A stretch of DNA of 64,000 nt from Escherichia phage vB_EcoM-RPN226. Both the position numbers and the translations under genes were made by a program. The notes beneath the pieces were generated by a model. That model did not search any database, had not been told where the DNA came from, and saw only the letters and a list, made by a program, of their open reading frames with translations. The first letter of the stretch is position 1; each line of letters begins with the position of its first letter. The stretch lies in sequence record OL770073.2. One strand, given 5' to 3'. Below, in pieces: positions 2,286 to 48,257 of this stretch.

Positions 2286-3108
2286 AGTACACAGACCGTT
2301 AATAAATAATCCATAACAAGAGGAAAAGTTATGGATTATTCTAAAATTTACAATAACCTTATTTCTAAAGCTAAGAACAGAAAATTAGATTGCTATACCG
2401 AATCACACCATATTATACCTCTGTGTATTGGTGGTTCTGATACAAAGGAAAACCTGGCAGATTTGACACCCGAAGAGCATTATATAGCTCATCAATTATT
2501 AGTAAAGATATATCCAGATAATCATAAATTGGTATTTGCCGCTAATATGATGTGTGTGTATTCTGAAGATAATATTGAACGAAAGAACACCAATAAACGC
2601 CATGGGTGGCTTAGAAGAAAATTGGCTATTTCTGTATCTGAAAATAATAAAGGCAAACCAGCTTGGAACAAAGGTATTCCGGTAACTGACGAGCATAGAG
2701 AAAAACTTCAAACAACTTGGGTATTTACTTTCCCGGACGGTCATGAAGAAATCCATAAAGGCCTAAGAGAATTTTGCGAACTACATTCACTCAATGCTTC
2801 GGCAATGTCGGCCGTATGCAAAGGCAAAAGGTCTCAACATAAAGGCTTTAAGTGTCGAAAGTTTGATAATATCTCTGAAAACGATAATCAAGAATACGTC
2901 AGTAAACCTCATCCAAAGGGATTAAAACCCCATAACTTAATTGCTGTAAAAATAAACGGTATAGAATATCAATCAATACATCGAGCATCTAAAGCTCTAG
3001 GAATATCTCGAAAAAAGGTAGAAGAATTAAATGAATATTGATTATGAATTTGTAGATGAATTTTACGAAGATGATGAGTATACAACAATACAAGTTATTG
3101 AAAACAAA
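2205..3108 (+). mobile_element. 904-bp insertion carrying an HNH endonuclease gene, interrupting nrdA between the NSQQ and GEVGLC codons
   Basis: NrdA homology stops at nt 2204 and resumes at nt 3109; the intervening DNA encodes the junction tails and an HNH ORF. Confidence 0.65.
2331..3041 (+). CDS. HNH homing endonuclease (MobE/I-TevIII-like family) inserted in nrdA
   Basis: 236-aa ORF; N-terminal YTESHHIIP...EEHYIAH HNH motif; C-terminal INGIEYQSIHRASKALGIS HTH-like tail; AAGAGGA RBS; stop overlaps start of downstream nrdA fragment. Confidence 0.8.
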   Translation: MDYSKIYNNLISKAKNRKLDCYTESHHIIPLCIGGSDTKENLADLTPEEHYIAHQLLVKIYPDNHKLVFAANMMCVYSEDNIERKNTNKRHGWLRRKLAISVSENNKGKPAWNKGIPVTDEHREKLQTTWVFTFPDGHEEIHKGLREFCELHSLNASAMSAVCKGKRSQHKGFKCRKFDNISENDNQEYVSKPHPKGLKPHNLIAVKINGIEYQSIHRASKALGISRKKVEELNEY

Positions 3109-4020
3109 GGTGAAGTGGGCCTTTGTACCCTTAGCGCATTTGTGCTGGATAACTTCGATTGGCAAGACCAAGATAAAATCAACGAATTAGCAGAAGTTCA
3201 AGTTCGTGCTCTTGATAATCTTTTGGATTACCAAGGATATCCAGTTCCTGAAGCAGAAAAAGCTAAAAAGCGTCGAAACCTTGGCGTAGGTGTTACTAAC
3301 TATGCAGCTTGGCTGGCAAGTAACTTTGCTTCTTATGAAGATGCTAACGATTTAACACATGAACTATTTGAGAGATTACAGTATGGACTCATTAAAGCAT
3401 CCATTAAGCTCGCCAAAGAAAAAGGACCTTGCGAATATTATTCAGACACTCGTTGGTCTCGAGGCGAATTACCTATCGACTGGTACAATAAAAAGATTGA
3501 CCAAATCGCAGCTCCAAAATACGTTTGTGACTGGTCGTCGCTGCGGGAAGACCTTAAGCTCTTTGGCATCCGTAATAGCACATTATCAGCACTTATGCCA
3601 TGTGAGTCATCTTCCCAAGTTTCTAACAGTACAAACGGTATCGAGCCTCCACGTGGACCAGTCTCTGTTAAAGAATCAAAAGAGGGTTCCTTTAATCAAG
3701 TCGTGCCCAATATTGAGCATAACATAGACCTCTATGATTATACGTGGAAATTAGCTAAGAAAGGTAATAAACCTTATCTTACGCAGGTAGCTATTATGCT
3801 GAAATGGGTATGTCAATCAGCTTCAGCGAATACATATTATGACCCGCAGATTTTTCCAAAAGGAAAGGTTCCAATGTCTGTAATGATTGATGACATGCTA
3901 TACGGATGGTATTATGGCATTAAAAACTTCTATTATCATAATACCCGCGATGGTTCTGGTACTGATGATTATGAAATAGAAACTCCAAAAGCTGAAGATT
4001 GTTCATCCTGTAAATTATGA
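3031..4020 (+). CDS. nrdA: ribonucleotide reductase large subunit NrdA, C-terminal fragment (329 aa; first 26 aa non-homologous)
   Basis: contains GEVGLCTLSAF, NSTLSALMPCESSSQ and a C-terminal Cys pair typical of class Ia RNR alpha. Confidence 0.9.
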   Translation: MNIDYEFVDEFYEDDEYTTIQVIENKGEVGLCTLSAFVLDNFDWQDQDKINELAEVQVRALDNLLDYQGYPVPEAEKAKKRRNLGVGVTNYAAWLASNFASYEDANDLTHELFERLQYGLIKASIKLAKEKGPCEYYSDTRWSRGELPIDWYNKKIDQIAAPKYVCDWSSLREDLKLFGIRNSTLSALMPCESSSQVSNSTNGIEPPRGPVSVKESKEGSFNQVVPNIEHNIDLYDYTWKLAKKGNKPYLTQVAIMLKWVCQSASANTYYDPQIFPKGKVPMSVMIDDMLYGWYYGIKNFYYHNTRDGSGTDDYEIETPKAEDCSSCKL

Positions 4021-4071
4021 TATAATTTGACTCACGGACGAGTCACTATCTATTAACTAAGCGGAAAATTT

Positions 4072-5250
4072 ATGAGCACAGTTTTTAATACAAATCCAGT
4101 TGATGTTTTAAAAGAACCTATGTTCTTCGGTTCAGGTCTTGGTATTGCGCGTTATGATATTCAACGCCATAAAGTTTTTGAAGATTTAACCGAAAAGCAA
4201 TTATCATTTTTCTGGCGTCCTGAAGAAGTAAACTTGATGATGGATGCTGCACAATTTAACAAGCTTCCTCAGTATCAGCAAGATATTTTTACTAATAACC
4301 TGAAATATCAATCACTTCTGGATAGTATCCAGGGTCGTGCACCGTCTGCTGTACTTATGTCATTAATTTCAGACCCAAGTCTTGATACATGGGTTGCTAC
4401 ATGGACTTTTAGTGAAACTATTCACAGTCGTTCATATACTCATATCATGCGAAATCTTTATACTGATCCATCGAAGGTATTTGATGAGATTGTACTAGAT
4501 GAAGCTATCATGAAACGTGCTGAATCTATCGGTCGCTATTATGATGATGTTCTGACTAAAACCCGTGAATGGGAAAATGCTAAAGAATTTACAGAACTAG
4601 CTAAAGAATCTCCTGATGCTGTTTTTCGTTTAAATCGAGCTATTAAACAAGAAGCCGAAGCTAAACGAGCACTAATGAAATCTCTTTACCTCTGCCTGCA
4701 CGTAATCAACGCATTGGAAGCTATTCGTTTTTATGTATCTTTCGCATGCACCTTTAACTTCCATAAGAACATGGAAATCATGGAAGGTAATGCCAAGATT
4801 ATGAAGTTCATTGCACGTGATGAGCAGCTTCACCTTAAAGGCACCCAATATATTATTCGTCAACTTCAACTTGGCACTGATGGTGATGAATGGGTTAAAA
4901 TCGCCCAAGAGTGTGAACAAGAAGCAGTTGATATTTTCATGGAAGTTAATCGCCAAGAAAAAGATTGGGCAGTTCATTTATTTAAAGATGGCGATGTTCC
5001 TGGATTAAATACAAATAGCATGTGGAGCTTTATTGATTACTTAACTGTATCTCGTATGAAACAGTGCGGTCTTCCATGCCCAATTACTGATGCTCCGGTT
5101 AAACATCCGTATCCTTGGATTCGTGAATATCTTAATTCTGATAATGTTCAATCCGCGCCACAAGAAGTAGAACTGTCATCTTACCTTGTAGCACAGATTG
5201 ATAATGATGTTGATGATAAAGTTATGATGAGTTTTAAAAAATATTTTTAA
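4072..5250 (+). CDS. nrdB: ribonucleotide reductase small subunit NrdB, uninterrupted
   Basis: 392-aa ORF with R2 ferritin-like motifs; no intron-like interruption. Confidence 0.92.
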   Translation: MSTVFNTNPVDVLKEPMFFGSGLGIARYDIQRHKVFEDLTEKQLSFFWRPEEVNLMMDAAQFNKLPQYQQDIFTNNLKYQSLLDSIQGRAPSAVLMSLISDPSLDTWVATWTFSETIHSRSYTHIMRNLYTDPSKVFDEIVLDEAIMKRAESIGRYYDDVLTKTREWENAKEFTELAKESPDAVFRLNRAIKQEAEAKRALMKSLYLCLHVINALEAIRFYVSFACTFNFHKNMEIMEGNAKIMKFIARDEQLHLKGTQYIIRQLQLGTDGDEWVKIAQECEQEAVDIFMEVNRQEKDWAVHLFKDGDVPGLNTNSMWSFIDYLTVSRMKQCGLPCPITDAPVKHPYPWIREYLNSDNVQSAPQEVELSSYLVAQIDNDVDDKVMMSFKKYF

Positions 5251-25602: not shown

Positions 25603-25614
25603 TATTTATAAATA
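25603..25614. promoter_or_regulatory. overlapping divergent late promoters (TATTTATAAATA) for gene 51 and gene 26
   Basis: TATTTATA (minus-strand TATAAATA) and TATAAATA share the central TATA. Confidence 0.55.
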
Positions 25615-33557: not shown

Positions 33558-34841
33558 TTATTCATCAACGATAATTTTTGGTAATTTAACACCTAATAAA
33601 ACAGACAAATCTGAACGACCCGCCATTTTATCCATGTCTCCACCATCAATTATTCTTGCTTCTTTTTCATCTTTTGCTACAGTGTAAGGATTTGCAGATA
33701 AAGCATATCTAACCAATAAACCGATAGATGGTTGTAAGCTTTCTGGATCAACCACAACTTTAAATGCACCTACATGTTCAGGGTCATCTAAGTCGAGACC
33801 TTCTGTATACGGAGCATAGAAAATTGATCCGACAATTTCTTTTTCACCAATATTTTCTACTACGCCAACGATTACATAATCTAATGGGCTGTTAGTATCG
33901 CAATAAAGCGGTAAACCATTAGCTAAGAACCCATAGGCATTTTGTGAAAGATATTTATCATCTTCTGGTTTATGTTTTAACCAACCTGATGCAGCAAGAA
34001 TCGCAGCGGCACGAGCTGAAGCAACACAGAACGTTGCAGTATAAGTTGATTCTTTTTGGATATGCGAAACCATTTCACATACCATTCGGTATAATGAACG
34101 ACCAGCTTCAGGTGCAGATGCATAACTCAAATCGATGAATCCACTATCAGTAATTCCTGTAACTTTATAGCGTTTTGACACTGTAATCAAAGACTGCAGA
34201 ATATCTTTATTGATTTCATCTGCCATTTCAGTTGCAAGCAAATCTTCCAAGAAATTAGGAGCATCGAATCCATTTGCTTCTAAATCTTGCGCTAATTCAA
34301 CTGTGATGCCAGTTTTAAGTTTACGAGATTTAACCGCGGTTTGCCATTTATTAATCTGGAATCTAGCATCCGCAATTTCACTATCAGAGCTTTCAAATTT
34401 GCTTGTTGACGCTGCGTCAGAAAATAGACGAACCTTTAAAAGAACAATTGCAATCTGAAGAGCTAGCTCTAAGTCACTTTCTTGAATATCTGCAAATGGT
34501 GTATCTTCTAACACTTTATAGACGATATTATTATATTTGAATAAATCGCCTTTATTGAGAGTTAATTTAGACTCTTCTGTTAATTCTGTGATTTGTTCTC
34601 GGTCTACGTATCCAGCTTCGCCAGCATAAGTAGCACCAGTTTTAAATGTAAATTCGTTATCTGGGTTAAGGTATTTGATACCGTAAAAAGCAGCAACAGG
34701 TTGATTAGTTCTTTGCGTTGCTACAATGTCAGAATATATTAATTTAGTGGTAGCGCGAGTCAAAGCAACGAGATTTGGGCGACCGATTGAGTTGCTATTC
34801 GTTGTGGTTGATTCGCGCAGAAGTTCGTTGATTTTAGCCAT
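33558..34841 (-). CDS. 24: capsid vertex protein gp24
   Basis: 427 aa, same length as T4 gp24; paralog of gp23. Confidence 0.9.
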   Translation of the reverse strand: MAKINELLRESTTTNSNSIGRPNLVALTRATTKLIYSDIVATQRTNQPVAAFYGIKYLNPDNEFTFKTGATYAGEAGYVDREQITELTEESKLTLNKGDLFKYNNIVYKVLEDTPFADIQESDLELALQIAIVLLKVRLFSDAASTSKFESSDSEIADARFQINKWQTAVKSRKLKTGITVELAQDLEANGFDAPNFLEDLLATEMADEINKDILQSLITVSKRYKVTGITDSGFIDLSYASAPEAGRSLYRMVCEMVSHIQKESTYTATFCVASARAAAILAASGWLKHKPEDDKYLSQNAYGFLANGLPLYCDTNSPLDYVIVGVVENIGEKEIVGSIFYAPYTEGLDLDDPEHVGAFKVVVDPESLQPSIGLLVRYALSANPYTVAKDEKEARIIDGGDMDKMAGRSDLSVLLGVKLPKIIVDE

Positions 34842-34868: not shown

Positions 34869-34876
34869 TATTTATA
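34869..34876 (-). promoter_or_regulatory. late promoter TATAAATA (minus strand) for gene 24; a second copy lies at 34899-34906
   Basis: plus strand TATTTATA twice within 40 nt upstream of the gene 24 start. Confidence 0.5.
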
Positions 34877-34915
34877 CTTTTCACGTGATGTGATAAAATA
34901 TTTATAGGAGGATTT

Positions 34916-36427
34916 ATGTCTATTGATATTTATAAAGATAAAAATGGCAAGCTGAACAAGAACTGGAAAATGATACACGCTAAACACCCTGAAATCATTG
35001 ATAGTATTGAGTTGCCATATGATGACCCTAAAACAAAAATCGTTTTAGCGATAAACGGAATGACAGAACTTAGCCGCTGTAAAAACTGTGGTGTTGAGAT
35101 GGATATCTCGAAGCTTGGCTCAGATTATTGCTCTAGAAAGTGTTCAGCTAACTCATCTGAAGTTAAGAGGAAAAAGCTTGATAGCATTAATCTTGAAGAA
35201 CGCGGCAAAAAAATTTCTGAATCTCTTAAAGGTAAATCCACTGCAAAATCTTGGAATACTCGTAAGAAAAAGTATGGTGAAAAAGGATTTAGCCAAACTG
35301 GGATAGAAGCTATCAAAAATAACGGAGTTAATTCTAGCGAAAAACGAATTAATACAATGATTACCCGTTATGGAGTTAAAAACCCGTTTCAACTGGAAAG
35401 CGTGATTGAAACTATATCCAAGGTTCAAACAGAGAATAACACCGCACGAAACCATTTACCCGGTTGGCTGTATGATAAGAATAAATTTAAACAAGTTTAT
35501 TCTAAATCTGGAATTAGAGGAATAATCAAAAAATCTGGCTGCGGTGCAAATTTAGCATATGTTTTATCACGTGAATATCAGCTCCGAGATATGAAAACTA
35601 CTTCGGCCGAAACAGAGATTCTGAGTTTTATTAATGAACTCGGGTTTGAAGCAGAGAAGACGCGCCAAGTGATAGCACCTTTTGAGCTGGATATCTATGT
35701 CCCAGAGAAGAAGCTTGCTATTGAGTTCAACGGTCTTTACTGGCACAGTTCAGGCTCAAAGGAACAGGACATTATTAAGAATAACCATCTCAAAAAGACT
35801 GAGATGTGTGAAGCACAAGGAATTCATCTGCTGCATATCTTCGAGAATGAATGGGTAGATGATACTAAACGCGAGATATGGAAATCGGTTATTAGAAATA
35901 AACTTGGTAAATCTGAACGCATCTATGCGCGTAAATGTAAGGTACATCCGGTTGATTCTAGAGCTGCTAAAGAGTTTTGTGAGTATAACCATTTACAGGG
36001 TCATGTCCCATTCCAGAATGCCCTGGGTTTATTCTATAACGATGAATTAGTACAGTTGGTCACATTTGGCAGAGGCCGCTATCAAGGTAAAACCGAATTA
36101 CTTCGTATGTGCACAAAACGTGGATACAGCGTAGTAGGTGGTGCTTCAAAACTTCTCAAGGATAAGAAATTTATTTCTTATGCTAACCGTAGATGGTCTA
36201 TGGGTAATGTGTATCAACAGATCGGTATGAAACAGATTGGTGTTACTCCGCCGTGTGACTATTATTTTGATAAAGGCCGTCTGTATCACAGGTCAAGTTA
36301 TATGAAACACTTATTAAAAGACAAGCTCAAAGTTTTTGATGAAAATCTTAGCGCGATAGAAAACTGTTATAACAACAAAATAAGAAGAATTTGGGATTGT
36401 GGTAATATAGTTTATGAATCCCAATAA
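34916..36427 (+). CDS. multi-domain putative nuclease (zinc ribbon, NUMOD-like motif, Vsr/DUF559-like PD-(D/E)xK core, unknown C-terminal domain); candidate free-standing homing endonuclease
   Basis: 503-aa ORF with AGGAGG RBS; CKNCG...CSRKC zinc ribbon; EERGKKISESLKGK NUMOD3-like motif; FELDIYVPEKKLAIEFNGLYWHSS...GIHLLHIFENEW nuclease-like core; antisense between genes 24 and 23. Confidence 0.65.
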   Translation: MSIDIYKDKNGKLNKNWKMIHAKHPEIIDSIELPYDDPKTKIVLAINGMTELSRCKNCGVEMDISKLGSDYCSRKCSANSSEVKRKKLDSINLEERGKKISESLKGKSTAKSWNTRKKKYGEKGFSQTGIEAIKNNGVNSSEKRINTMITRYGVKNPFQLESVIETISKVQTENNTARNHLPGWLYDKNKFKQVYSKSGIRGIIKKSGCGANLAYVLSREYQLRDMKTTSAETEILSFINELGFEAEKTRQVIAPFELDIYVPEKKLAIEFNGLYWHSSGSKEQDIIKNNHLKKTEMCEAQGIHLLHIFENEWVDDTKREIWKSVIRNKLGKSERIYARKCKVHPVDSRAAKEFCEYNHLQGHVPFQNALGLFYNDELVQLVTFGRGRYQGKTELLRMCTKRGYSVVGGASKLLKDKKFISYANRRWSMGNVYQQIGMKQIGVTPPCDYYFDKGRLYHRSSYMKHLLKDKLKVFDENLSAIENCYNNKIRRIWDCGNIVYESQ

Positions 36428-36477: not shown

Positions 36478-38043
36478 TTAGATACCTTTCACGTATACAC
36501 GGCGGAAGTAAGCATTTTTACCAAGGCTATTCAGAATAGAAGGCATACCGCTCTGGATGCGAGAAGCCGGAGCCTGAGCAGCGGATTCTGCAAATGGGTT
36601 GATACCGATACCGTAACGAGTTTTGAAACCCATAACAGGCTGGAAATTTTTCGGATCAGAACCACGCAGCGGAGTCAGAGCTACATATGGAGCATAGTAA
36701 ATACCAGCATCCATTTCGTTCGGACCTTTATAACCTACAGTGAAATAATCCTGTTTAGCATACTGGTCGATATATACACGGTATTTACCACCCAGAACAC
36801 CAGCAAATACTGACTTGGTAGTATCAGTGTTAAAGCCGGTAGCCAGACCCTGTGCAGCATAAGAAATGCCAGTATCAACTGAAGCCAGAACGTTAACTAC
36901 GTTACGGGAAGCGATAATGAAGTTACCTTCACCACGACCGGTCTGACGAGCAATTTCAACTGCTTCTTTGTCAATCTGGAACAACAGAGCTTTAAAGGAT
37001 TCACCCGCCCAGCGAGCACCACGAATATCAATCGGATCCTGGAAGTCAAATACACCAGCTTTAGAACCCGGAGTCAGGGTCATACCAGATTTACCAACCT
37101 GAGCTGAGTAGTTAATCCAATCAACAACTTCACGGTTGATTTCCAGCATGATTTCGGTAGCCAGAATACCAGACAGTTCAGCATCAGCATCCATACCGTG
37201 AACAGCGCGGAGGTCTTGTGCTAATTCGATAGAGTAAGCAGCTTTCAGCTGACGAGATTTAGCTTCGATAACTTGTTTATCGATACGGAAGCCCATTTCA
37301 TTCCATGGGTTATCGGTAGAACCGTTGAAACTTTCCTGGAGTTCAGCGATAGAAGTAGCCATACCTTCAGCGATTTCTACCAGTGCACCAGCTTCCATTT
37401 GTTTCTTAATTTCAGCATCTAATTTAGCTGCGTCAGTTGCACTTGAACTAATTGTTACTTGAGCAGAAGCTTGCAGATACACAGTACCAGTGTCCTGGAA
37501 GAAGTGAGTATAGATATCACCTGCTGTGGTTTGTGTGCTAGCAGCCAGAGCTGCGAATTTCTTAGCAGCACCCTGACCAGAGAACATTGCATCTGGACCA
37601 TACATTGGGTGGAATGCTTCTTTAGCACCAGAAGCGACCGGGTCTTTACCATATACTGCGCGCAGTGCGAATACCTGGCCAGTCGGGCTGTTCATCGGCT
37701 GAACACCGCAAATATCGAAAGCAATCAGGTTAGGAATAGCACGACGTACCATACCCATAACAGCTGGGCCAATCTGAGTTACTGCGCCAGAAGTCTGACC
37801 TGCAGCGATGTTGGTAGCATTGTAACCGTGGTCACCGCCGATTTCAGCTTCTGTTAAGAAAGAACCAAATGCCTGAGCAATTTTTTCGTCTTTGTACTCT
37901 GGAGCTGTCTGGAAATCTTTTTCCTGGTTTTCAAAGATTTTAGCGATAATCGCTTGTTTGCTATTAGCAATTTCCGGTAAACCTTCACCTTCCAGTAATG
38001 GCTTCCATTTGTTCAAAAGTTCAGCTTTAGTTTTGATAGTCAT
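36478..38043 (-). CDS. 23: major capsid protein gp23
   Basis: 521 aa; MTIKTKAELLNKWKPLLEGEG matches T4 gp23. Confidence 0.95.
   Translation of the reverse strand: MTIKTKAELLNKWKPLLEGEGLPEIANSKQAIIAKIFENQEKDFQTAPEYKDEKIAQAFGSFLTEAEIGGDHGYNATNIAAGQTSGAVTQIGPAVMGMVRRAIPNLIAFDICGVQPMNSPTGQVFALRAVYGKDPVASGAKEAFHPMYGPDAMFSGQGAAKKFAALAASTQTTAGDIYTHFFQDTGTVYLQASAQVTISSSATDAAKLDAEIKKQMEAGALVEIAEGMATSIAELQESFNGSTDNPWNEMGFRIDKQVIEAKSRQLKAAYSIELAQDLRAVHGMDADAELSGILATEIMLEINREVVDWINYSAQVGKSGMTLTPGSKAGVFDFQDPIDIRGARWAGESFKALLFQIDKEAVEIARQTGRGEGNFIIASRNVVNVLASVDTGISYAAQGLATGFNTDTTKSVFAGVLGGKYRVYIDQYAKQDYFTVGYKGPNEMDAGIYYAPYVALTPLRGSDPKNFQPVMGFKTRYGIGINPFAESAAQAPASRIQSGMPSILNSLGKNAYFRRVYVKGI

Positions 38044-40206: not shown

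Positions 40207-40207
<1 letters not shown>
39965..40207 (-). CDS. 67: prohead core protein gp67
   Basis: 80 aa with poly-acidic C-terminus, as in T4 gp67. Confidence 0.85.
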
Positions 40208-41832
<1,625 letters not shown>

Positions 41833-41864
41833 TTAAGCAGGATGGGGATTTCTCCCCATTCATT

Positions 41865-42356
41865 TTATTCCCAATAATCGAGAGCGAGAGTTACTTCAAA
41901 GGTTTGGATTTCATTGTTTGAATCCCAATCTAATTGAAGTTCACCCACGTTAGTAGGCCACAGACCTTTAATTTCGACTTCTTTTGTTACAGTTTTAGCG
42001 TCACGAGCATATTGGCGAACAACAGCGCTCTTTTTATACTCTGCTGGTTTTCCACCAGTAATTTCGTTCCCTTGCCCAGCAGCAATGCTTTGCCAATCAA
42101 CAAACTTCTGGCGAGCATCATGTGCCTCATCGTTCATTACTGTAACAGTCCAGTCATCGAATGTACGATCGCCTGCTACGTTAATTTTACGGTTCATGAA
42201 TCCGACTGGAATTTTTTCTACAATACCAGCTGGTAAAGCAGTGGCTTTACATTGAAACGTAAAATTTTGTCCAAGATAAGAAATTTCTACTTGGAATAAG
42301 TTAGGTCGAGCAAAATCACCAGATTCAAACGCTCGTGTTACATCATCTACAAACAT
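41865..42356 (-). CDS. 19: tail tube protein gp19
   Basis: 163 aa, same length as T4 gp19. Confidence 0.9.
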   Translation of the reverse strand: MFVDDVTRAFESGDFARPNLFQVEISYLGQNFTFQCKATALPAGIVEKIPVGFMNRKINVAGDRTFDDWTVTVMNDEAHDARQKFVDWQSIAAGQGNEITGGKPAEYKKSAVVRQYARDAKTVTKEVEIKGLWPTNVGELQLDWDSNNEIQTFEVTLALDYWE

Positions 42357-42370
42357 ATTAGCCTCTGTAG

Positions 42371-42378
42371 TATTTATA
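42371..42378 (-). promoter_or_regulatory. late promoter TATAAATA (minus strand) upstream of gene 19; second copy at 42430-42437
   Basis: two plus-strand TATTTATA motifs separated by the hairpin GGCCTG-CCGAAA-CAGGCC. Confidence 0.5.
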
Positions 42379-42463
42379 TCCCTATGTTTAACCTAGGGCA
42401 TATAGAATTAAAGAATTAAGGATATAGTGTATTTATATGGCCTGCCGAAACAGGCCTTTAGAA

Positions 42464-43021
42464 TCATTCTAGTAAATCCCAAAGATCTACGCTATTTCTT
42501 TTTGACTTTTCTCGGTTAGATTCCCAAGTGATTATTTCTAAATTTTTTACGCTTGCTATAATTTCCGGCGGAATTAAATTATCAAATCCATATTTGATAG
42601 ATACCTTGTGATCAAGTTGGTAAGCACCTTCTACGCCGCACAATCCTATTTTATCAGCATTCGGCCATTTTGACCAAATTTTTCTTATTTTAGCTGACTT
42701 AGTTATAGAATGAACTCTACTAGCATATAATGCAAACTCTTTTCTTTTACCAGTCCATCGAGGATGTTTATCGCCTCTTTGCCATGGTCTGCTTATTCCA
42801 GATTGAACTTCCGAATTTTTAATAGCAACTTGTTTAATGCTACATTTTCTACATGCATGTGTGGGTGTTCTATTTAAAAGCTGAATGCTTCTACTAAATT
42901 TAATACCACACAAATCACATTTAGCGTCAACTATTTTATTACTATTCTTTGGCATTAATTCTATTGGAACAGATATTGTATCATGATATGATACTTTATA
43001 TCCCAGAATTGTCGACCACAT
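42464..43021 (-). CDS. HNH endonuclease with N-terminal zinc ribbon, inserted between genes 18 and 19
   Basis: ORF with C-terminal YQLDHKVSIKYGFDN...WESNREKSKRNS HNH motif and CDLCG...CRKC zinc ribbon; start taken at the internal ATG (the track ORF extends to 43108 from a TTG). Confidence 0.7.
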   Translation of the reverse strand: MWSTILGYKVSYHDTISVPIELMPKNSNKIVDAKCDLCGIKFSRSIQLLNRTPTHACRKCSIKQVAIKNSEVQSGISRPWQRGDKHPRWTGKRKEFALYASRVHSITKSAKIRKIWSKWPNADKIGLCGVEGAYQLDHKVSIKYGFDNLIPPEIIASVKNLEIITWESNREKSKRNSVDLWDLLE

Positions 43022-43086
43022 TTTTGAATGATTTCTTGGTTTTATTGTAACAAACTTAGAAATAATCACTTGTTTCCTCGAGAATA

Positions 43087-43100
43087 GGGGCCGAAGCCCC
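43087..43100 (-). terminator. hairpin GGGGC-CGAA-GCCCC immediately downstream of gene 18
   Basis: GC stem-loop directly after the gene 18 stop on the minus strand; no clean U-run. Confidence 0.4.
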
Positions 43101-43108
43101 ACAATCAA

Positions 43109-45088
43109 TTAACCTGCAAGACCAGTTAACTCATCGAAATCTGCACCAGTAGCAGTTGCGACGAAATTAAGTTGGATATAATTTATACTACGAGCCGGTT
43201 GAATGTAGAATGTTGCAACAAACTCATTTCTATCAATTACTGACGGAGTGTTATTTGTTGTATCGCAAACTACACGATATTCATAAATTCCACCGAGAGC
43301 TTTAATTCCCTGCAAGTACTGGGAAGTTTCTGTGCGGAACGATGAACGAGTAAACGCGTTGTTTAATTCGAACAAACGATATTTTGAACTACGTCCGATA
43401 TTCGTTTTTAACATATTAAACAGACGACGAACGTTAATACGATCAAATGGAGAAGGAACAGAAGTAGCTGTTTTATCACCATACAATACGTAACCATCAC
43501 CACCTGTACCGGTTACCGGGTTGATAGCTTCTTGATATAAACGGTCGCGCTGCGCCTGGCGAGTTTCAATAGCAAGTTTAATAACGTTAAGAATCTGGCC
43601 ACGATTATAACCAGCTGGAGACATCCAAGTCTGAGAAACGTTATCAGTTCTTGCACACAAACCAGCAATATCAGCTGCTAATGGAACCCAACGATTCACA
43701 TCATTATATTTGTCATACTGATACTTGTAGTTACCATCGATTGCTGCATAGGTTGAACTGATATTAAAGTTGTTATCAGTGTATGAACCTGCTGCAGTTC
43801 TCCAATTGACTAAGTTATCAACAGCACGAGTTACAGGAATTCCAACTACAGTTTCACGCGGTGGTGAGCACAGTACTAAGCAATCTTGGCGAGCATCACC
43901 AATTGAAACGACGTGTTTTTGGACAGTAGATGCTGTTTCTAAAGATTCGCCGGCGCAAGAACCCGCAATAAACAACTGAACGTCAACAGATTCACGGTCA
44001 GCAAAGAAGTCCCAAGCTTCCATCAAATCTCCTGCTGTCACTTCAGCATTTGATGATAATCCACCAGACAGAGTTAAAATTCCAGAGAAGCCTTCTGGCC
44101 AGTTTTGCGCAGTTGCAAAAATATATTCTGAACCACCTTTTGCGAAAAAGTCATCAATATAGATGTTACTATCGTAAATATCTTTTTCACCACGCTTTGT
44201 TGAAAGAACAACGCTTTGAACAATAGCATCATTGCGACGAACTATAATAGCGTATTGTGAATCAGTTTGTGGTCCATATCCAAACACTGCCTTGGCAGTA
44301 GATGCGCGGGTTCCGCCGCCTGGATAAATTGGAAGTAATGCAGAAGCCCCTTTTGCGTAGTCAGCTTTAGATACGATTTCAATTTCGATTTTATCGCCCA
44401 ACTCGCCTGGATAAAGAGCTACTACTCCTGGAATTCCATATTTTTCGAGATTTGCTTGAAAGTCAACAGCTGTCATAGCAGCTTCGGCATTTTCAATTTC
44501 AGCTAATAAAATACCAGAATCAGTAATAATTTTTCCAAGAGTTATTACTGCAGCTAAACCAGAGGAAGACGAAGAAATTTCCGCGGTCCAGTTAGAACCT
44601 AATGCTGGATATTCGCCTACTTCTTTCGCTTTAGCGATAATTTTTGCGGTAGGAATATTAATTTTCTTAATTTTTCCATCAGCATCTACTTCGGTAACTT
44701 TACATTCTGTTTCAATGTCTTCTGAAACATACTTAACCGTGATTTTATCTCCAACCGCGTAGTTACTACCTGGGGTAGAAATAGTGTATTCAATATTACC
44801 GGCAATCGGAGATGAGTTTTTAGCGGTATCTCTATCGACAGCACGCACAACTCGCAAATCATTTCCGTATTGTAAGAAATTCATTGCAGACATAAAATAG
44901 TCAGCAGTTTCAGCTGTAGGTTGACCAAAAGTATTAACTAAATCTACTTCGTTTGTAACCTGTTTAATTTGAAAAGCAGGACCCCACTGGAATTTACCGG
45001 CCAAAGCTGCTGTACCAGTAGAGTTATTAACCACGGTGCTTTGAACCGTAGTTTCTTTGAGCTCAATGCCCGGAGATAATAAAGTCAT
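43109..45088 (-). CDS. 18: contractile tail sheath protein gp18
   Basis: 659 aa, same length as T4 gp18. Confidence 0.93.
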   Translation of the reverse strand: MTLLSPGIELKETTVQSTVVNNSTGTAALAGKFQWGPAFQIKQVTNEVDLVNTFGQPTAETADYFMSAMNFLQYGNDLRVVRAVDRDTAKNSSPIAGNIEYTISTPGSNYAVGDKITVKYVSEDIETECKVTEVDADGKIKKINIPTAKIIAKAKEVGEYPALGSNWTAEISSSSSGLAAVITLGKIITDSGILLAEIENAEAAMTAVDFQANLEKYGIPGVVALYPGELGDKIEIEIVSKADYAKGASALLPIYPGGGTRASTAKAVFGYGPQTDSQYAIIVRRNDAIVQSVVLSTKRGEKDIYDSNIYIDDFFAKGGSEYIFATAQNWPEGFSGILTLSGGLSSNAEVTAGDLMEAWDFFADRESVDVQLFIAGSCAGESLETASTVQKHVVSIGDARQDCLVLCSPPRETVVGIPVTRAVDNLVNWRTAAGSYTDNNFNISSTYAAIDGNYKYQYDKYNDVNRWVPLAADIAGLCARTDNVSQTWMSPAGYNRGQILNVIKLAIETRQAQRDRLYQEAINPVTGTGGDGYVLYGDKTATSVPSPFDRINVRRLFNMLKTNIGRSSKYRLFELNNAFTRSSFRTETSQYLQGIKALGGIYEYRVVCDTTNNTPSVIDRNEFVATFYIQPARSINYIQLNFVATATGADFDELTGLAG

Positions 45089-45116: not shown

Positions 45117-48257
<3,141 letters not shown>

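Follow-up and report, generated by a model that had tools for sequence, protein, structure and literature searches.

A probable homing endonuclease gene of the T6 ORF19.1 family at the junction of the tail sheath and tail tube genes in Escherichia phage vB_EcoM-RPN226

Free-standing homing endonuclease genes are well known from the T-even phages. Seven of those in T4 are promoter-less cassettes, and the enzymes cut away from their own gene, within a neighbouring conserved gene (PMC2988022). The genes mobA to mobE lie between conserved genes and vary in their presence among the T-even phages, while SegF and SegG act by intronless homing, in which a neighbouring conserved gene is cut at a distance, the flanks are co-converted and markers are excluded locally (PMC2988022). 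RNA structures are known or suspected to limit the translation of other phage homing endonucleases (PMC3014915). Here we describe an open reading frame (ORF) that lies between gene 18 (tail sheath) and gene 19 (tail tube) in a stretch of 64,000 nucleotides (nt) from Escherichia phage vB_EcoM-RPN226 (OL770073.2), referred to below as the window. The ORF, 43069-42464 on the minus strand, is a copy of T6 ORF19.1 and is likely to form, with the hairpin and Shine-Dalgarno sequence in front of it, a free-standing, promoter-less homing endonuclease cassette.

The locus resembles mobA to mobE in its intergenic position and its variable presence, and several Mob genes in lacking an apparent promoter and riding on the upstream transcript; mobA is also predicted to start at GUG (PMC2988022). 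The Mob proteins carry their HNH domain at the N-terminus and a presumed DNA-binding region at the C-terminus (PMC2988022), whereas the order in ORF19.1 is reversed, and ORF19.1 is therefore not of the Mob type, a distinction drawn from published descriptions of the Mob proteins. The mode of homing proposed here matches that of SegF and SegG, but the Seg enzymes are of the GIY-YIG class and have experimentally mapped sites, and at the present locus only 50-85 base pairs (bp) separate the candidate site from the point of insertion. The closest known systems also include small HNH nicking endonucleases, namely Geobacter Gme HNH (PDB 4h9d), the HNH protein of phage GVE2 (5h0o) and SciA of phage T5 (9qgx). 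No paralogue of the ORF19.1-type protein was detectable within the window.

A survey of ORFs and annotation assigns the window to Tequatrovirus, with the gene order 17-18-ORF-19-20 on the minus strand. A megablast search with 41800-43700 matched 694 phage records, the top one at 98.8% identity over the entire query. ORF calling confirmed the nuclease-type ORF that an earlier note, made from the letters alone, had placed between genes 18 and 19. It had already been deposited in 1994 as T6 ORF19.1, with which it shares 98% amino-acid identity, position, GTG start, hairpin and Shine-Dalgarno sequence. The two genes differ at 10 of 606 nt, and the 7 synonymous and 3 nonsynonymous changes indicate that the gene is intact and constrained. 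T6 ORF19.1 has no assigned function in its records, where it is called 'hypothetical protein' or 'ORF19.1', and the PHROG family matched by the window protein (PHROG 5104, expectation value (E) 7e-82) is one of unknown function. The parts of the cassette are as follows.

42465-43108, minus strand: inserted segment relative to T4, about 644 nt (alignment with T4, T6 and RB3; junctions in 14 genomes)
43087-43100, minus strand: insert-borne hairpin GGGGCTTCGGCCCC, read as GGGGC-UUCG-GCCCC, 8 nt 3' of the gene 18 stop (absent from T4)
43073-43079, minus strand: Shine-Dalgarno sequence GAGGAAA, its GAGG 6 nt 5' of the GTG (conserved in T6 and RB3)
42464-43069, minus strand: ORF19.1-type gene, GTG start, TGA stop, 201 amino acids (aa), predicted HNH-like homing endonuclease (homology)
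42842-42919, minus strand: four-cysteine zinc ribbon, C51, C54, C73 and C76, putative DNA-recognition module (alignment)
42515-42613, minus strand: HNH-like core (D153-H154, N176, N185) in the C-terminal domain (predicted)

The maximal ORF runs from 43108 to 42464 and opens with TTG, and its leading 39 nt contain the hairpin and the Shine-Dalgarno sequence. The true start is almost certainly the GTG at 43069, because GAGGAAA precedes it, the consensus of 43 homologues opens there with M-I-I-S-K and the T6 annotation agrees. Nearly all of the alignment rows shown start at this position. The insert-borne hairpin is common to both Tequatrovirus alleles of the gene (see below), and the homologous ORF is preceded by a stable hairpin in every genus examined. 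The predicted RNA structure overlaps the Shine-Dalgarno sequence only marginally.

At its N-terminus the protein is predicted to have a four-cysteine zinc ribbon, which presumably recognises DNA, and at its C-terminus an HNH-like beta-beta-alpha-metal domain. In an alignment of the 43 homologues, whose identity ranges down to about 35%, C51, C54 and C73 are invariant and C76 is found in at least 90%, while D153, H154, N176 and N185 are invariant in all 43. An HPRW motif followed by Y-Q-L-D-H-K-x-S...N-L-x-x-x-x-W-x-x-N-R-x-K is also conserved. We take D153, H154, N176 and N185 to include the catalytic histidine and the ligands, by analogy with known HNH enzymes. In AlphaFold2 models, which have a predicted local distance difference test score of 89 for the whole protein, 88 for residues 96-201 and more than 90 for the zinc ribbon, H154 ends a strand, N176 stands before a second strand and N185 lies in the next helix, which gives the beta-hairpin and following alpha-helix of the metal finger fold. 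The description 'zinc-ribbon HNH' in the earlier note thus holds for the conserved motifs and the predicted fold, though not for a match to a curated family model. Searches of the PDB by sequence and profile returned only weak zinc-finger and spurious leucine-rich-repeat matches, and Foldseek against the PDB gave no significant match. A leucine-rich-repeat likeness of IPPEIIASVKNLEIITWESNR (42500-42570, residues ~167-187) was rejected as a chance pattern match; its profile pulls in Leptospira leucine-rich-repeat proteins at E 0.002 for the whole protein, with no single stretch significant.

The zinc ribbon lies within an N-terminal domain (residues ~1-95) for which 15 of the 43 members have weak DUF4379 treble-clef matches, and which also has a weak profile match to the mitoribosomal protein mS66 (E 0.004). 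A profile of the C-terminal domain (42467-42784, residues ~96-201) matched 3880 representatives of 50%-identity clusters at E <=0.001, 1262 of them at E <=1e-10, and no model in Pfam or NCBIfam covers this domain itself. The domain is C-terminal in nearly all of the best 150 of the 3880 matches. Sampled longer proteins have N-termini with NUMOD3, helix-turn-helix arrays or DUF7487, and zinc ribbons also occur among the fusions. A modular build of this kind is typically found in homing endonucleases.

Comparison with T4 places the insertion precisely. The T4 gene 18-19 spacer is 116 nt long and holds no gene; the T4 records and the alignment thereby bear out that the ORF is extra relative to T4, as the earlier note had supposed. 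From ATTCTAAAGG on, T4 and the window agree base for base: the hairpin, the two TATAAATA motifs, the small hairpin and the ribosome site of gene 19 are all the same, and the match continues into the beginning of gene 19. In all gene-less genomes compared among the 14 examined for their junctions, the sequence reads TAA-TACGGTGC-ATTCTA, and in the window about 644 nt (43108-42465) stand in place of the 8-nt TACGGTGC of T4, with a boundary ambiguity of 1-2 nt. Among gene-less genomes, T2, RB32, G50 and T4_ev151, as well as five metagenomic contigs, all have this hairpin and a junction of one and the same 140-nt geometry. When viral contigs were scanned for exact matches to the spacer pattern, five loci turned up, too few for statistics. 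The alignment with T4 was also inspected for a target-site duplication in the flanks; none was seen, and none is expected of repair-mediated homing. The features between the ORF and gene 20 are listed here.

42439-42456, minus strand: ancestral hairpin GGCCTGTTTCGGCAGGCC, read as GGCCUGU-UUCG-GCAGGCC (fold; identical in T4 and other gene-less genomes)
42430-42437, minus strand: distal TATAAATA late-promoter motif (motif scan; same place in T4)
42380-42398, minus strand: small hairpin CCCTA-GGTTAAACA-TAGGG, just 5' of the proximal motif (fold; identical in T4)
42371-42378, minus strand: proximal TATAAATA late-promoter motif, 14 nt 5' of the gene 19 ATG (motif scan; same place in T4)
41865-42356, minus strand: gene 19, tail tube, 163 aa (ORF call and T4 comparison)
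40207-41793, minus strand: gene 20 (ORF call)

The GC hairpin after the gene 18 stop, the second hairpin and the two promoter motifs had all been read correctly from the sequence, and it is their interpretation that changes. The suggestion had been that the insertion preserved or duplicated the gene 19 signals. Preservation stands: the cassette lies upstream of the ancestral hairpin and the two late promoters, and the gene 19 signals are therefore intact. The idea that the insertion duplicated the gene 19 late promoter, with the hairpin and promoter pair as its by-product, draws on the presence of two ATATAAATAC motifs 59 nt apart on the 3' side of the ORF, but it is refuted. T4, which has no such ORF, matches the window exactly in the motifs, in the hairpins and over all 107 nt of the spacer; these signals are therefore ancestral, nothing having been duplicated; T2, RB32, G50 and T4_ev151 show the same hairpin in the same 140-nt gene-less geometry, and the motif common to both sites is merely 10 nt long. 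Relatives with both promoter copies and the hairpin but no HNH gene are thus the observation that the earlier note had itself named as refuting its interpretation. The T4 GenBank records carry no promoter annotation for the 18-19 interval. The window contains 19 copies of TATAAATA, where 9.5 are expected and none of 100 shuffles gives as many, and two copies in a 107-nt spacer, where about 0.008 are expected, are far above chance. Elsewhere in the window, at 25603-25614, two TATAAATA motifs overlap on opposite strands to form a palindromic late-promoter-like site.

The hairpin directly after gene 18 had been taken for gene 18's own terminator. It is absent from T4 and borne by the insert, and the hairpin that follows gene 18 in T4 now lies 3' of the ORF. 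Neither hairpin was called by a terminator scan, because neither is followed by a T-run, and the reading of either as an intrinsic terminator was rejected. Both are of the UUCG-loop type. Tuerk et al. are said to have found, in 1988, that such hairpins are common in T4 intercistronic regions.

In at least three groups, genomes that are otherwise nearly identical differ in whether they carry the gene at one precise intergenic site. About 500 Tequatrovirus records include some 117-119 with the gene and 382 with the T4-type gene-less junction. Of the records of T4-like Klebsiella phages, 40 have the gene and about 101 lack it, their flanks being 95-97% identical, and within Gelderlandvirus/Moonvirus it is found in S16, STP4-a and Ursula and missing from Melville, CGG4-1, Moon and Merlin. 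In the Klebsiella phages and Gelderlandvirus the insert likewise follows the stop codon of the sheath gene at a distance of 0-2 nt and leaves an ancestral hairpin and late-promoter spacer on its downstream side. This T-even presence/absence polymorphism was reportedly first described by Repoila et al. in 1994 (EMBO J).

Beyond Tequatrovirus, full-length homologues stand directly 3' of the tail-sheath gene in Hadassahvirus, Winklervirus, the Klebsiella phages and Gelderlandvirus, and likewise in Dhakavirus, Karamvirus, Ceceduovirus and Emdodecavirus. All full-length contexts that were read show this site: Acinetobacter phage Mokit, Serratia phage CHI14, Klebsiella phage Roth19 and Salmonella phage STP4-a, and further Escherichia coli phage Bp7, Enterobacter phage KMB20, Aeromonas phage AS-zj and the very distant Sinorhizobium phage phiM7. 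In a tblastn search 232 of 242 matches cover at least 80% of the protein, with one place per Tequatrovirus genome among those listed, and every copy translated is intact. Two of the records with this DNA carry unexpected host names: MG010123 ('Staphylococcus phage SAJK-IND', 32 kilobases) and OR584013 ('Pseudomonas phage PsgM02F') contain Tequatrovirus 18-ORF19.1-19 sequence at 94-99% identity, which is odd for the stated hosts and suggests mislabelling or contamination.

Members of the family are also found in other arrangements. An ORF of Acinetobacter phage 133 (1874-2695 in locus numbering) splits the RNA ligase gene rnlA into rnlA-A and rnlA-B, and its C-terminal part is 47% identical over 58 aa to the ORF19.1 nuclease domain; the depositors had recorded its similarity to T6 ORF19.1. 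Karamvirus KMB20 has two ORF19.1-family genes in tandem between genes 18 and 19 (2201-2800 and 2910-3602, locus numbering), which belong to different subfamilies and are 63% and 31% identical to the window protein.

The genes 19-20 interval of two of these phages also contains ORFs. That of KMB20 (4098-4679) has a GIY-YIG-like N-terminus, MYCTYLT...YIGST. The Bp7 ORF annotated 'HNH endonuclease' (3469-4050) has an N-terminal motif that looks GIY-YIG-like, and profile comparison found no similarity between it and the ORF19.1 family. The portal gene downstream of it in Bp7 (4108-5030) is annotated as two pieces, gp20' and gp20.

Two alleles occur within Tequatrovirus: allele A is that of the window and T6, and allele B is found in RB3 and RB6, among others. 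The hairpin, the Shine-Dalgarno sequence, the opening ten codons and the final ~80 codons are common to the two at 73-100% nt identity, whereas their N-terminal domains are only 38-57% identical in nt and 38% in protein sequence. The allele-A N-terminal domain is nearer to that of Karamvirus KMB20 (57%), and the allele-B domain to those of Klebsiella Roth19 (61%) and Salmonella STP4-a (58%), although gp19 of the window and RB3 are 99% identical; the history of the gene therefore cuts across the phage phylogeny. The swapped N-terminal domains represent an exchangeable, presumably DNA-binding domain joined to an HNH-like nuclease domain.

Transcription of the cassette can be considered with the following feature in view.

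45117-45124, minus strand: TATAAATA motif just 5' of gene 18, presumed source of the late transcript for the inserted ORF (motif scan; role inferred)

No consensus late promoter lies between this motif and the ORF, which makes it probable that the cassette has no promoter of its own and depends on read-through. Late transcripts of gene 18 would probably run on through the C(UUCG)G hairpin, with a possible contribution from a variant late promoter, TATAAATT, within the 3' end of that gene. The GTG start, which is probably translated weakly, and the stable C(UUCG)G hairpin upstream would keep expression low. In a mixed infection the enzyme would nick or cut a gene-less genome such as that of T4, most likely in the conserved 3' end of gene 18, and recombinational repair from the carrier would copy the cassette together with its flanks.

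A patch of largely synonymous change near the end of gene 18 is the candidate for the target.

43109-45088, minus strand: gene 18, tail sheath, 659 aa (ORF call)
43160-43192, minus strand: synonymous-change patch in gene 18, nt 1897-1929, codons 633-643 (T4 comparison)
43180-43187, minus strand: TATAAATT inside the gene 18 patch (sequence reading)

Gene 18 of the window differs from that of T4 at 111 of 1980 nt, and 14 of the 33 nt in the patch differ, changing 10 of 11 codons and one amino acid. The patch sits 49-83 nt upstream of the gene 18 stop. Other 33-nt segments upstream of gene position 1850 have at most 7 differences, and none of 20000 permutations reached 14. The same position stands out elsewhere. 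When Klebsiella Roth19, which has the gene, is compared with Roth51 and K65evo2, which do not, the mismatch maximum falls on the patch (11 of 33 nt, no amino-acid change), whereas Roth51 and K65evo2 differ from each other at 2 patch positions, though overall they are as distant from one another as each is from Roth19. Between Gelderlandvirus STP4-a and Melville the mismatch maximum is again at the homologous position, with 15 of 33 nt. Six carriers from five genera have ATA AAT T(A/T)T (Ile-Asn-Tyr/Phe), against ATT AAC TAY in gene-less T4, RB32, Roth51 and K65evo2. RB3 and Roth19 have an identical 26-mer at the patch in sheath genes that are otherwise clearly distinct. These patterns weakly suggest that the patch is a candidate homing site or immunity determinant, of which carriers would hold resistant synonymous variants; a site there would agree with the way free-standing endonucleases cut a conserved neighbour and not the point of insertion (PMC2988022).

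The patch may instead be a variant late promoter, TATAAATT, for the ORF. Genomes with AGT ATA AAT TAT spell TATAAATT at the patch, one base off the late-promoter consensus, and late promoters with a single deviation exist in T4 (PMC2988020); several endonuclease genes of T4 are served by a promoter of their own that lies within the 3' end of the preceding gene (PMC2988022). The corresponding bases in KMB20, STP4-a and Mokit are GATAAATT, a poorer fit to a late promoter.

A number of observations weigh against homing by a mobile endonuclease and against the patch as its target. Among gene-less genomes, T2 and G50 have the allele-B patch, T4_ev151 and two metagenomic contigs have one that is allele-A-like, and about 136 of the 382 gene-less Tequatrovirus records have a patch that is not of the T4 type. 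Conversely, Shigella phage sb3 has an intact allele-B gene beside a T4-type patch. A statement drawn from band counts, that no carrier has the T4-type patch, was overturned by sb3; such genomes number at least one and at most about 14 among some 119 carriers. Codons of the gene-less type adjoin the distant homologues of CHI14, Bp7, AS-zj and phiM7, and association of patch and gene is largely to be expected because the two are physically linked over 50-85 bp. Only 3-21 nt separate the end of the homologue from gene 19 in CHI14, Mokit and AS-zj, and a late promoter lies upstream of the homologue in CHI14 and Bp7; the layout in these four phages looks like stable integration into the late operon and fits long residence as well as mobility. 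As for the enzyme, the HNH models of Pfam and NCBIfam gave no significant match, the best being HNH_4 at E 0.0056 for the Mokit homologue and at E 0.078 for one of the 43 members. A literature search found no paper on the ORF19.1 family and no report of nuclease activity, a cleavage site or biased inheritance for it, and a search for a homing endonuclease between gp18 and gp19 returned nothing relevant.

Some of this would be natural for an ancestral, non-selfish accessory late gene, such as one for a late nuclease directed at host or phage DNA, that was lost repeatedly, including from the T4 lineage, its constant site reflecting vertical inheritance. Besides the packing against gene 19 and the upstream promoters just described, such a gene would account for the syntenic place directly behind the sheath gene, found in at least eight genera and even in the very distant phiM7, and for purifying selection and invariant catalytic residues. 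We nevertheless consider it unlikely. Only about a quarter of the Tequatrovirus and Klebsiella-phage records carry the gene, in flanks 95-99% identical; repeated loss would have to leave one identical clean junction in every gene-less genome examined; the relationships of the N-terminal domains cut across genera; and relatives split rnlA in phage 133 and stand in tandem in KMB20. T4, moreover, is fully viable without the gene.

It seems very unlikely that what survives here is a homing endonuclease gene in decay or without activity, kept only because its deletion is neutral or awkward. Its weak GTG start and want of a promoter of its own would suit a remnant, as would the many gene-less genomes with associated patch variants, which are expected late in a homing cycle, and T4 itself has defunct endonuclease genes (PMC2790892, PMC3014915). 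Yet the protein is full-length in 232 of the 242 tblastn matches, about 117 of them in Tequatrovirus, with the translated copies intact; the D, H, N and N residues are invariant; and the 7:3 ratio of synonymous to nonsynonymous changes speaks for constraint. A mobile, promoter-less endonuclease cassette thus remains our preferred explanation of the locus. A broader proposition, which we put forward tentatively and regard as rather doubtful, is that the ORF19.1 family tracks the conserved 3' end of the sheath gene across the T4-like phages and beyond, with zinc ribbons as swappable specificity modules, the codon block (ATA AAT TAT versus ATT AAC TAC) as a portable immunity patch that would move with the gene, and the C-terminal domain as a large HNH-like family (at least 3880 clusters) that lacks a curated model.

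A further ORF of the window may be another inserted nuclease gene. It encodes 503 aa at 34916-36427 on the plus strand and fills the interval between gene 23 (36478-38043) and gene 24 (33558-34841), and its Pfam match to the restriction-endonuclease-like family REase_MTES_1575 is weak and falls below the cutoff (E 5e-6). At its 5' edge, upstream of gene 24, TATAAATA occurs three times on the minus strand within 66 nt (34869-34876, 34899-34906 and 34927-34934).

The gene has been deposited under many public labels: hypothetical protein, 19.1, putative head morphogenesis protein, holin, HNH endonuclease, homing endonuclease and type II restriction endonuclease. A better uniform label would be 'putative free-standing HNH-like homing endonuclease, T6 ORF19.1 family', and T6 ORF19.1, previously deposited and uncharacterised, is best filed with the well-known free-standing homing endonuclease genes of the T-even phages. 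The locus would then be a case of a probable mobile nuclease added inside an essential cluster of late structural genes. To a specialist this is unsurprising; what goes beyond the ordinary is the fidelity to the sheath-tube junction across genera, the domain-swapped alleles and the recurrent patch in gene 18. For gene 19 the picture of expression is unchanged, the hairpin and double late promoter being ordinary T4 sequence. The reading predicts a localised marker bias around genes 18-19 in crosses of T6-type with T4-type phages, and these phages, with two alleles of the gene, three variants of the patch and both carrier and gene-less genomes, offer a natural series for the co-evolution of an endonuclease and its target.

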